From the NCBI RefSeq assembly GCF_056746865.1, contig NZ_CM163382.1: DNA of 64,000 nt; one strand, 5' to 3'. Shown one piece after another: positions 57,601 to 60,600 of the stretch (its first letter is position 1; every line of letters begins with the position of its first letter). Position numbers: made by a program.

Positions 57601-60600
57601 CCGCAGGGAATGACCAGAACGGAGCGCGAAGAATTAAAAAGTTTCGCTACACAGTGCGGGAATGCTGGCGACATCCAAAGTCTGGAACGCACTTTAATTA
57701 TGATTGCGCACTGGATGCGCCAGGGGCAAAGGGTTTCATTTACTGAATATGCCAGCCAGTGGACAGAGGCACAGCGCGAACGGAGCGACGGTAATCACTC
57801 AACACCCGAAATGGCGAAGCAATGGCCTTTCAGTGGTAAACGCTGTATCAGTCCCGGTGGTTCAGATTATTACCCTGCTGGTGTGGGAGATGAGCCATGT
57901 TGTGACGAGACTGAAATCCGCCACGCAGTGACAGTAATTACCGCTGAATACCCACAATTTAACCTTGACGGACTGGCGCTCCACAACCGGAATGCGGACT
58001 GGGAAAACCCGCTTGATAACCCGTCATTTATCGTATCGGCGAAAAGCTGCCTGAGATGGATCAGAGACAACGGGATGAGTAATGCCCAGATTGAGAGCTT
58101 CCCGCAGGATAACCCCACATCTGACACGTTGAAGCATGAAGTGGAGCGATATAACCAGATAAACCACCAGCACAGTGATCACCCGCACTATATCCCCAAC
58201 GGAGCATTTATTGCGGCGATGGTGGCAAGCGGCTACAAGGTTAAACCAGCGGGAAGAATGAACGCATTTTTCAATATTTCAAAAAAGGGATTATGTGCTG
58301 CTATGGGTAAAAATTAAATAAATGGTACAGGTCTGTACAGGTGGGTAGAGGTCATTTTTACCCACCTGTACCACCTGTAGGCCGCGCCACACAAGGGTTT
58401 GTGGCATGGTGGTACAGGTGGTACAGCAAAAACAGCGATTTTCTTTATAAGGTATGTTTTGCTCATCTGGCAGACGGAGGTATTCGCTGCGGTTTGGCAC
58501 ATAGCCCAGAACAGGAAAGAGTTTTACGAGACTTTTGTAAAATCCAGTGTACAAGGGCGTGACGTTTTTGAAGGTGAGCACTACGAAATTTTCGTAGTTC
58601 AAAAAATAGCCTCTGAGATGTTGTTATGCCTGTTCAGCAAACCATCCGCATAGCTGATCGCGAATCAAATTACCAATGGAGCCAGAAGCAAGGGCAGAAC
58701 TGGAAAGCGCCTGCCATGAAGAGTAATGCGACACCATAAATATAGTTTTTAGAGTCCATAAAAAACCTGTCAAAACTTGACACACAGAACGATGCCACCA
58801 GCTACTGAGCGGTGGCATTTTCTTGTGCTATTCGTTTCACATTTTGCAATGAACATGATGAATATTGCGTTTTATGAAACTATAATAACTGTTGTTTTAT
58901 ACAGTTCTAAGGGGGCGTTATGGCTATTTCAGTAAAGCCGGTATTGATAAGTGAGAAGCAAATGGAAGCGATAAAGAAAATTCAGGAAGAGCAGCGTAAA
59001 AAATCAGGAATTGGAGTAGCGCCAACTCTACATGAAATTGCACGAGGGTTAATAGATAAGGCGCTGGCAGGCTGTATGTGAAAATGGATGGCATCGCATG
59101 GAACTAAAATTTATTGATAACCCTGTGCGATTACAGGCCTTTCTTAACGATCCTGGCAATACCGAAAATATTGTTGAGCCGGGGCACACGTACTACATCA
59201 AGCCTGATGCGGTATATCTCGGCATCTACGAAGGATTGGTGCTGGCTGGCGTTCATGAAGTGCGTAACTTCTGGCATAGCATTGTTGAATGCCATGCGGT
59301 GTACGACCCCGGATTCCGTGGTGAATATGCACTGCAAGGGCATCGATTATTCTGCAAATGGCTTCTCGAAAACTCACCATTCCTTAACAGCATTACCATG
59401 GTTCCTGACACCACCAAATACGGACGGGCAATTATCCGTTTGCTTGGCGCTACCCGTGTTGGTCACCTTGATGATGCTTATATCAGATGTGGTAAACCCG
59501 TCGGCGTAACGCTTTATCAGTTAACTCGGCAACAATATAAGGAATTCAGCGAATGTTAATTACCCATATAGCTCATAAACATCTCAATCGTGCCGTATAC
59601 GAAAAAGGCGGTGATGGTGGTGCCTCTAAAGCTCAGGCGAAGGCCCAGCAGCAGGCAATTGATTTGCAGCGCGAGCAGTGGAATACGGTGATGAATAATC
59701 TCAAGCCGTATGCAGAAGTCGGATTGCCTGCTTTACAACAACTACAAGGACTGATGACTCTGGAAGGGCAGAATAAAGCCGCGAATGATTTCTTTGGTTC
59801 TGGTTTATATAAAACACAGGCAGATCAGGCCCGTTATCAGAACCTTGTCTCAGCAGAAGCTACCGGGGGGCTTGGCTCAACAGCTACCAGTAACCAGTTA
59901 TCTTCCATTGCGCCCATGCTTTATAACAATTGGCTTAGTGGGCAAATGCAAAATTATGGAAACCTGCTAAATGTCGGGATGAATGCGGCATCAGGGCAGG
60001 CAACGGCAGGGCAAAACTACGCCAATAATACCGGACAACTCTTGCAGGGGCTTGGCGCTATTCGTGCAGGTCAGGCGCAGCAGCCATCCAGTCTTGCGCG
60101 TGGTATTGGTGGGGCAGCATCAGGCGCTTTAGCGGGTGCGCAACTTGGTTCCGTTGTTCCTGGAATAGGAACTGCGGCCGGCGCTATTGGTGGTGGGCTT
60201 ATTGGTCTTGTTGGGGGGCTTGGATTCTAATGGCGACATGGCAACTTGGCGGGCTGCCTAGCATGGCACCGCAAAATGATAATGCTCCTCGTTCTTCCGT
60301 TCCTCAGCCTGTGCAGTATCAGCAGCAGCCAAACGTAGGTTTAATGGCGCTACAGGGGCTAAGAGGCGTTGCTGAGATTAATCAGCAGGCGCAAATTTCC
60401 CAGCAGCTAAAAGAATATCAGGCACGGTTGGGTAGTGCGGTAGCTAATAATGATCGTGTTGGCGTGCAGAAGTTAATGGCCCAGTATCCCCAGTTTATGG
60501 CTGATTCTCAAAAACAGATGGGATTCATTGATGCTGAGCAAAATCGGCAGACCGCTGACGCTGCCATGAATCTGCGTCTTGCGTCACAAACTGGAGATCC

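Follow-up and report, generated by a model that had tools for sequence, protein, structure and literature searches.

An EcCIMP1-type phage-inducible chromosomal island of Escherichia coli with a putative DNA-ejection operon headed by a predicted ribbon-helix-helix protein and a homolog of P22 gp14

The window analysed here is a stretch of 64,000 nucleotides of an Escherichia coli chromosome (contig NZ_CM163382.1, RefSeq assembly GCF_056746865.1), in which two adjacent plus-strand open reading frames (ORFs) of 53 and 153 codons were followed up. Both were found to belong to a phage-inducible chromosomal island (PICI), in which they are the first two of five genes in an operon encoding, in this order, a predicted ribbon-helix-helix (RHH) protein, a gp14-like, a gp7-like and a gp20-like protein and an SLT::gp16-like fusion. 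This operon is rather probably the satellite's own DNA-ejection module of the type known from phage P22, with an RHH repressor and LexA controlling its expression and the gp14-like protein serving as assembly factor. A preliminary description of the sequence had compared the two ORFs with type II toxin-antitoxin (TA) and abortive-infection pairs, and had offered a regulator followed by the first gene of a virion module as the other possibility. The TA proposal was rejected as the principal explanation; of the other, the start of an ejection-protein operon is present and the regulator role of the 53-aa protein is a prediction. For the question as posed the value is mostly corrective, there being no TA system and the 153-aa protein being no orphan.

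The 153-aa protein, encoded by an ATG-initiated ORF at 59098..59559, had been described as lacking recognisable motifs and as starting 17 nt after the small ORF. The spacing from stop to ATG is 16 nt, and the protein matches Pfam family DUF2824 over residues 3-150 of 153 (208.3 bits against a cut-off of 25, E 7e-62) as well as phrog_651, annotated as ‘head morphogenesis’ (E 1e-66). P22 gp14 is a member of DUF2824 by the same model (179 bits, E 6e-53) and aligns with the 153-aa protein over its full length at 23% identity, while the nearest phage homolog is Kapi1_055 with 83% identity.

The gp14-type genes of P22, Kapi1 and APSE-1 always have the tail-needle gene before them and the gp7 homolog after them. 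In the window the DUF2824 gene is likewise situated directly upstream of a gp7 homolog, followed by genes of the gp20 and gp16 types as in these three phages, but in place of the tail-needle or tubular tail gene of a phage late operon it has a terminator, a promoter and the 53-aa ORF before it, within a satellite that has no other virion genes. The missing neighbour is a difference in context and no failure of homology. An acetyltransferase-like (GNAT) fold was obtained for the protein by fold prediction. P22 has standard homologs of the internal virion proteins (IVP) A and B of T7, and T7 IVP-A matches acetyltransferases and is needed for morphogenesis without being retained in the virion (Hardies et al., PMC4819975). 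With this P22 gp14/T7 gp13 IVP-A class the 153-aa protein shares the Pfam family of P22 gp14, the position directly upstream of a gp7 (IVP-B) homolog and the acetyltransferase-like fold as reported for the class. It is a gp14/IVP-A-class GNAT-fold factor, with a putative role in ejection-protein assembly, which differs from P22 gp14 in being encoded by a satellite and in following an RHH gene.

No sequence-profile link of the 153-aa protein to the classical GNATs was found. The DUF2824 profile yielded only spurious matches to designed repeat proteins among PDB sequences, and alignment with hhalign to the Acetyltransf_1 protein of locus L024 and to a 165-aa ‘internal virion protein’ of locus L022 gave no signal, so that only fold or synteny connects DUF2824 with these two proteins. 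What P22 gp14 does at the molecular level was not stated in the literature searched, where most matches to ‘gp14’ concern T7, Sf6 or SP6. P22 gp14 is reportedly required for infectious particles yet absent from virions, and factors of its class are needed in phages for the ejection proteins to function.

Three further genes on the plus strand complete the operon. The third (59553..60230) encodes a gp7-type ejection protein of 225 aa (PF25688, E 7e-73) with 58% identity to Kapi1_056 and 56% to P22 gp7, and its start overlaps the stop of the 153-aa gene. The fourth (60230..61549) encodes a gp20-type ejection protein of 439 aa (Inj_translocase), 26% identical to Kapi1_057. The fifth, a lytic-transglycosylase::gp16-type ejection protein (SLT and Phage_P22_gp16), runs past the end of the window, which holds its N-terminal 818 codons (61546..64000); it measures 906 aa in EcCIMP1, the PICI of E. 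coli MP1. Stop and start codons overlap throughout genes 2 to 5, indicating translational coupling. Upon comparison of window positions 59098-64000 with the corresponding Kapi1 region (L009 8001-12635), identity falls steeply along the operon from 83% for the gp14-like protein over 58% (gp7-like) and 26% (gp20-like) to 25% (gp16-like), and at its N-terminus the last protein of the island carries a lytic transglycosylase domain in addition, which is lacking in Kapi1_058.

The island starts at its left end with an integrase gene adjoining yicC (46334..47677, plus strand), and its replication module, located before the operon, includes a P4-type primase-helicase with Zn-ribbon, Toprim and DUF5906 domains (54829..57183, plus strand). 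Besides integrase and primase, AlpA, AntA and Ash genes were identified on it; no capsid, terminase or lysis genes were found in the window part. Near-identical islands of about 20 kb are present between yicC and dinD/yicG in ECONIH1 and G749, without capsid, terminase, tail or lysis genes, and end with accessory genes and a PerC-family gene. Integrase, AlpA-type regulator and primase point in one direction in the window as in these two full islands, which is the PICI plan, and by its gene content the element is an EcCIMP1-type PICI beside yicC.

EcCIMP1 excises only upon induction of the P22-like phage Kapi1 and is transduced by it (PMC11773190). This helper dependence was demonstrated for EcCIMP1 with Kapi1; the window island is known from its sequence. 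The operon proteins of both elements are nearly the same, with 100% identity for the small ORF, 99.3% for the DUF2824 protein, 98.7% for the gp7-like, 99.5% for the gp20-like and 99.8% for the SLT-gp16-like protein. They also share the plan of integrase, AlpA, AntA, Ash, Icd-like protein, primase, operon, accessory genes and PerC, but EcCIMP1 is integrated at a tRNA-Thr near proA and has a DUF927 primase in place of the DUF5906 type, and integrases and iterons differ too. In the EcCIMP1 study the genes EcCIMP1_017-019 were named ‘promising candidates’ for packaging, with similarity to DUF2824 and DNA-transfer proteins, and the study is silent on the small ORF, its fold and a LexA box (PMC11773190). 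Apart from EcCIMP1, no Gram-negative PICI with ejection or tape-measure proteins was found in the literature searched.

For the first gene, the preliminary description was correct in reporting a 53-codon ORF with a strong ribosome-binding site (RBS): it starts with ATG, extends over 58920..59081 and is preceded by the Shine-Dalgarno sequence AAGGGGG at 58909..58915, both on the plus strand. The product was also rightly called basic and helix-rich, with a net charge of about +3 and two predicted helices. The small ORF was aligned across nine islands (E. coli, Citrobacter, Serratia and Klebsiella). Its pairwise ratio of non-synonymous to synonymous polymorphism (pN/pS) is 0.05-0.29, and among the 45 core codons first, second and third codon positions are variable in 14, 6 and 45 columns respectively. 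Because third positions vary far more than first and second ones and pN/pS is low, the small ORF is a real gene under purifying selection, beyond chance.

A profile search of 1.84 billion representatives produced 59 relatives of the 53-aa protein at E<=0.001, all of them small and with the common pattern KPVLL-x3-Q-x2-A-x3-IQ-x2-ER-x2-S-x2-G-x-AP-x-IH-x-IAR-x-L-x-KAL. No match was obtained in Pfam, PHROGs, NCBIfam or PADLOC, nor in PDB with either the single sequence or the profile, and tblastn against 50,697 phage records returned no homolog of this protein or of its phage-context homolog P0261. The structural model has an N-terminal strand followed by two helices and was superimposable on solved RHH domains in a fold search, with TraM as the top structural match. 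The assignment to the RHH fold is made because of this fold search, sequence searches having given none; of the earlier label ‘RHH-like’, the fold stood and membership of an RHH family by sequence profile did not. The model predicts an RHH-fold protein, presumably dimeric, which leads the operon and represents a previously undescribed family without a Pfam model. Compared with RHH DNA-binding proteins such as the TraM N-domain, Arc/Mnt, CopG, omega and ParD/ParG, it lacks sequence-profile membership, has a longer loop between helices A and B (S-G-I-G-V-A-P) and has a largely hydrophobic ribbon, and its DNA binding is a prediction. The protein ends directly after helix B and has no C-terminal extension.

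Upstream of the small ORF, a hairpin with T-run resembling an intrinsic terminator closes the replication module (58781..58827, plus strand; dG -24.6 kcal/mol, z -5.5). Its core is located at 58801-58816, no shuffled sequence folds as well, and in Citrobacter a hairpin occupies the same place with a different stem sequence. The candidate promoter that had been reported together with this terminator was found in part: a perfect -10 hexamer, TATAAT, is present (58881..58886, plus strand), but the -35 is poor and no promoter was called at the operon by a consensus scanner. The hexamer is near-invariant in the eight islands of an Enterobacterales-type subgroup (L021 included), reading TATAAT or, in one island, TAAAAT. 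Over the -35 region lies a conserved inverted repeat, TGCAAT-N13-ATTGCG (58845..58869, plus strand), which is kept as TG(C/A)AAT ... ATT(G/T)C(G/A) in the islands of E. coli, Citrobacter, Serratia and Klebsiella and is a candidate regulator site. Eight islands with different cargos have in common the block TTTCA...TG(C/A)AAT...ATGAT..ATT(G/T)C(G/A)TTTTATGAAACTATAAT-N2-CTGT.

Between the -10 and the RBS, the palindrome AACTGTTGTTTTATACAGTT of the form CTGT-N8-ACAG (58887..58906, assigned to neither strand) resembles a LexA (SOS) box and is a candidate operator. This form occurs four times in the window against 0.49 expected, and the copy at 58887-58906 is the only one with an AT-rich spacer. 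On a LexA position weight matrix (PWM) for which 19 known SOS boxes of E. coli were used, the training sites of which score 12.6-26.6 bits, it reaches 19.2 bits and is the best of 63,981 positions, the next scoring 11.8; the corresponding values are 21.4 in Serratia, 11.3-15.7 in Citrobacter and 17.3 in locus L015. The box is kept directly after the -10 in the E. coli, Citrobacter and Serratia islands. As RNA the palindrome forms no significant hairpin (z -0.6), so that a protein-binding site is the better reading. LexA control of the operon is a prediction about equally likely to hold or to fail, and both the palindrome and the inverted repeat at 58845-58869 are candidate sites for the predicted RHH dimer.

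Several other elements of this region were considered. The sole Rfam match between 57100 and 59150, to a miRNA family (20.5 bits against a gathering score of 53.4, E 0.68), was attributed to chance and an RNA explanation was dropped. The GAGTC-containing motif GTTTTTAGAGTCCATAAAAAA at 58745-58765, about 160 nt upstream of the small ORF, is conserved, with one copy in the E. coli islands and a direct repeat of two copies in those of Citrobacter (L012/L013, around 9790-9850); as a TraM-style GANTC operator it was discarded, being absent from the Serratia islands. A hydrophobic ORF of 29 codons on the minus strand (58670-58759), the start of which is overlapped by this motif, was rejected as a type I toxin and is probably not a gene, its ATG being lost in EcCIMP1 and the ORF not being conserved in Citrobacter. 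Just upstream of the terminator hairpin lies a perfect palindrome, TGTCAA-AAC-TTGACA (58768-58782), conserved among the E. coli islands.

The RHH and gp14-like genes are not a dedicated pair. Among 5,426 complete E. coli genomes, the promoter with the small ORF is present in 498 (the leader cassette thus occurring in about 9%) and DUF2824 in 896, and both occur together, adjacent to each other, in 257. In the islands the replication module is always followed first by the small ORF, and the genes downstream of it vary. They are the P22 set of four genes in islands of E. coli and Citrobacter (the window, L012-14 and L018), gp20 and SLT-gp16 only in Serratia (L005/6), and in Klebsiella (L010/11) a 605-aa protein with PHROG matches to tape-measure and ‘tail injection transglycosylase’ proteins. 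In L021 a 111-aa protein and a 990-aa tape measure protein follow, and in L003 a hub-like protein of 334 aa with small-terminase genes later on. About 240 E. coli genomes have the arrangement of L015, an uncharacterised set of 223, 115 and 116 aa in which no recognisable injection protein was found. In L024/25 the RHH homolog precedes an Acetyltransf_1 protein (151 aa, its start overlapping the RHH stop) and proteins of 175 aa, 822 aa (SLT), 599 aa and 824 aa, which is a T7/epsilon15-style internal-protein set outside a phage. The island concerned (L024 9001-16914/L025 2192-10105) has a DUF927 primase and an Exc gene, with a YdaT_toxin-domain gene nearby.

A homolog is also present in a lineage of BPP-1-like prophages, inside the structural operon. 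It follows the gene of the 165-aa ‘internal virion protein’ and precedes those of three large proteins, starting with one of 835 aa that contains SLT. In these prophages (L019 7186-7296; L022/L023 8891-9000) the sole sizeable gap of the structural operon precedes the RHH homolog, and this gap contains a perfect inverted repeat of 10-11 bp burying an AGGAGG RBS (RNA dG -18.6 kcal/mol, z -4.3), which could serve in translational or operator control of the internal-virion-protein genes.

In the mechanism proposed for the window operon, an RHH dimer would bind the conserved promoter region and keep a potentially harmful operon silent in the resting island, where its membrane- and murein-active proteins would stay off. 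Host LexA would bind the CTGT-N8-ACAG box abutting the -10, and SOS induction, by which the helper prophage is induced as well, would open the operon. In a helper-infected cell, the gp14-like factor would then prepare gp7, gp20 and gp16 of the satellite so that they can be loaded into procapsids built by the helper. This scheme builds on the identities and folds of the genes and their products, on the layout and conservation of the operon and on the finding that the two genes are independent, and adds to them RHH DNA binding, LexA control and an assembly role in satellite particles as its predicted parts. The regulatory interpretation was adopted because the small ORF always comes first after a conserved promoter block with a palindrome between -10 and RBS, because this palindrome scores like genuine SOS boxes and has no significant RNA hairpin, and because SaPI operon I offers a precedent. 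In the account cited in PMC6092414 (Ubeda 2007), SaPI operon I is the LexA-repressed packaging operon of staphylococcal PICIs. The window operon resembles it in following the replication module, in an SOS-box-like operator at its promoter and in presumably exploiting virion assembly by the helper, but encodes ejection proteins where SaPI operon I encodes genes for capsid size and terminase redirection, and its LexA binding is predicted, the box not being conserved across all genera. A reason for a satellite to carry an ejection set is suggested by a study of SieA, an exclusion system acting on gp20 and gp16, in which whole foreign ejection-protein sets functioned in P22 and the HK620 set partly escaped SieA (PMC10461980); the island proteins with low identity to those of Kapi1 are gp20 and gp16 (26% and 25%), as against 83% for gp14.

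A number of observations weigh against parts of this interpretation. None of the RHH families Arc, CopG/RHH_1, RHH_5, FitA-like, TraY and DUF1778 was matched by the window protein or by 35 of its homologs. The fold prediction called for in the preliminary description did return an RHH fold for the 53-aa and a GNAT fold for the 153-aa protein, but the former model is a monomer and the ribbon itself lies outside it. Most residues of the predicted ribbon, V-K-P-V-L-I/L, are hydrophobic and K6 alone is an obvious candidate for contacting bases, which is atypical for RHH proteins that read DNA. Homologs of the BPP-1-like lineage are situated inside a structural operon, where a dedicated repressor is less expected. 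On the side of LexA, the matrix was put together for this analysis from 19 sites, the right half of the box is lost or degenerate in the Klebsiella islands and the box is respaced in L021; furthermore, DNA damage alone drew no response from the alpA promoter of EcCIMP1, which did respond to the helper (PMC11773190, a paper silent on the promoter of this operon). For the 153-aa protein, sequence inspection showed that DUF2824 has not preserved the canonical acetyl-CoA motif of GNATs, Q/R-x-x-G-x-G/A; its beta4-alpha3 junction reads P-G-F-R74-G-E-Y-A-L with R74 invariant and the glycines substituted. Enzymatic activity is uncertain because of this degenerate motif; H66, which is invariant, and C65 and Y140, which are nearly invariant (>=90%), could be catalytic.

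The hydrophobic ribbon also fits a different role for the small protein, namely that of a working accessory of DNA-injection modules instead of a transcription factor, for instance an adaptor or chaperone for internal virion, ejection and tape-measure proteins or a small co-traveller bound to the leading end of the DNA, the 153-aa protein remaining a gp14/IVP-A factor. Linkage of the small ORF to injection-type proteins of unrelated families, the homologs in the BPP-1-like structural operon between ‘internal virion protein’ and SLT-containing protein, and the function of the top structural match TraM, which couples DNA to a transfer machine, agree with such a role. We nevertheless regard it as somewhat unlikely: in every case the gap between genes ahead of the ORF holds a promoter-like block or an RBS-adjacent palindrome, the classic position of an autoregulator, its 53 aa leave no extra partner-binding domain, no homolog was found among the 50,697 phage records, and the L015 cargo lacks a recognisable injection protein. 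A quite improbable explanation, which leaves the RHH and gp14-like proteins to serve expression and loading of gp20 and gp16, takes the operon as an interference weapon, with satellite gp20 and gp16 co-assembling in helper virions and mismatched pairs lowering the infectivity of the helper. P22 supplied with foreign gp16 alone or gp20 alone does assemble the protein and is non-infectious (PMC10461980), and the divergence of the satellite gp20 and gp16 from those of Kapi1 beside a conserved gp14 would suit this. Helper proteins would, however, poison satellite particles likewise, and EcCIMP1 is reported to aid replication of its helper (PMC11773190).

A TA or abortive-infection pair in the manner of TacA-TacT, AtaR-AtaT and KacA-KacT, with a GNAT toxin that acetylates aminoacyl-tRNA and an RHH antitoxin that neutralises it and autoregulates, was judged very improbable. 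The layout fits at the level of folds, an RHH gene lying a short spacer of 16 nt upstream of a GNAT of about 150 aa behind a palindrome-bearing promoter; a second adjacency of RHH and GNAT genes is found in L024/25 (Pfam Acetyltransf_1), and accessory regions of the islands carry TA and Abi genes. The proposal fails on three defining features, being antitoxin type, toxin profile and obligate pairing. The 53-aa protein has no DUF1778 match and no C-terminal tail for neutralisation, and the 153-aa protein matches no GNAT-toxin profile, none of the Acetyltransf families of Pfam (DUF2824 being its only match there) and nothing in NCBIfam or PADLOC, and has a degenerate acetyl-CoA motif. The genes co-occur in 257 E. 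coli genomes as against 498 with the small ORF and 896 with DUF2824, and in many islands the small ORF precedes genes other than a GNAT. Unlike the toxins of these systems, the GNAT is 83% identical to a phage virion-assembly gene that has no RHH gene beside it in Kapi1, P22 or APSE, and its gene is translationally coupled to gp7-gp20-gp16. One RHH family combined with two unrelated GNAT sequence families is the opposite of toxin-antitoxin co-evolution. Hardly credible, finally, is an inert remnant of a decayed P22-like prophage adjoining an island. Ejection genes are usual in prophages and the EcCIMP1 region was called an ‘incomplete prophage’ by PHASTER-type tools (PMC11773190), but the five ORFs are intact with coupled starts in the window, EcCIMP1 and the Citrobacter islands, and the small ORF is under purifying selection. 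Moreover, the operon is 99-100% identical at the protein level in islands with other attachment sites, integrases and primases, and belongs to an experimentally mobile element (EcCIMP1, PMC11773190).

The type of element and the family of the 153-aa protein were already known. New are the interpretation that the operon is an ejection module carried by a satellite, the family of RHH-fold leader proteins with its constant association with injection-type genes, and the predicted SOS-box-bearing promoter. Satellites are known to hijack capsid size, packaging specificity and tails of their helpers, and ejection proteins of their own would, if the interpretation is true, add the injection step. Why gp20 and gp16 are so extremely diverse and mosaic would then also have a concrete explanation open to testing, and a route past superinfection exclusion of the SieA type would be offered. 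The interpretation gives a role to the genes left as ‘candidates for packaging’ in the EcCIMP1 study, defines a small RHH-fold family marking such modules, and predicts SOS/LexA control of a Gram-negative PICI operon, parallel to SaPI operon I.

A wider generalisation is tentative and less likely than not to hold: that a widespread class of Gram-negative satellites brings its own DNA-injection apparatus, matched to the type of helper, headed by the RHH gene and placed behind an SOS-box-bearing promoter. Such satellites, without genes for capsid size or packaging redirection, would carry P22-type ejection proteins, T7/epsilon15-type internal virion proteins, a tape measure or a hub as cargo, and would re-equip helper-built particles with a conduit of their own for crossing the envelope. 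One possible purpose would be entry into cells whose P22-like prophage blocks injection via SieA. In this view the RHH protein would act as the switch or else belong physically to the conduit system.

The 3' accessory regions of related islands hold Abi_2, RnlA/RnlB, SLFN/AlbA_2, Fic and Abi_C genes (L005 16650-17612, L006 17949-19384, L010 15575-16723, L003 16498-19707), and because these are defence or TA-like genes, the related islands also carry defence functions. The counterpart region of the island studied here is located beyond the end of the window.

In the replication module, the 9-mer GGTACAGGT/ACCTGTACC is clustered at 57213-57315 (six copies) and 58324-58419 (five copies), in both orientations and with at most one mismatch. 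The 64 kb hold 25 matches (7.1 expected), of which 11 fall in these two clusters, which are probably iterons of the island's replication origin. EcCIMP1, with its other primase, has different repeats at this position. The clusters flank two ORFs of 83 and 245 aa just after the primase gene (57339-58317), for which no Pfam, PADLOC or meaningful PHROG match was obtained and which are present in ECONIH1 and G749 and absent from EcCIMP1. An insertion sequence of the IS3 family (47858-49131; orfA with HTH_Tnp_1, orfB with rve/rve_3) is inserted between the integrase and the next island gene, and is lacking in the island copies of ECONIH1 and G749. In ECONIH1 a gene of the reverse-transcriptase family, absent from G749 at that place, lies between slmA and pyrE (L001 5199-6158) and could be a retron.

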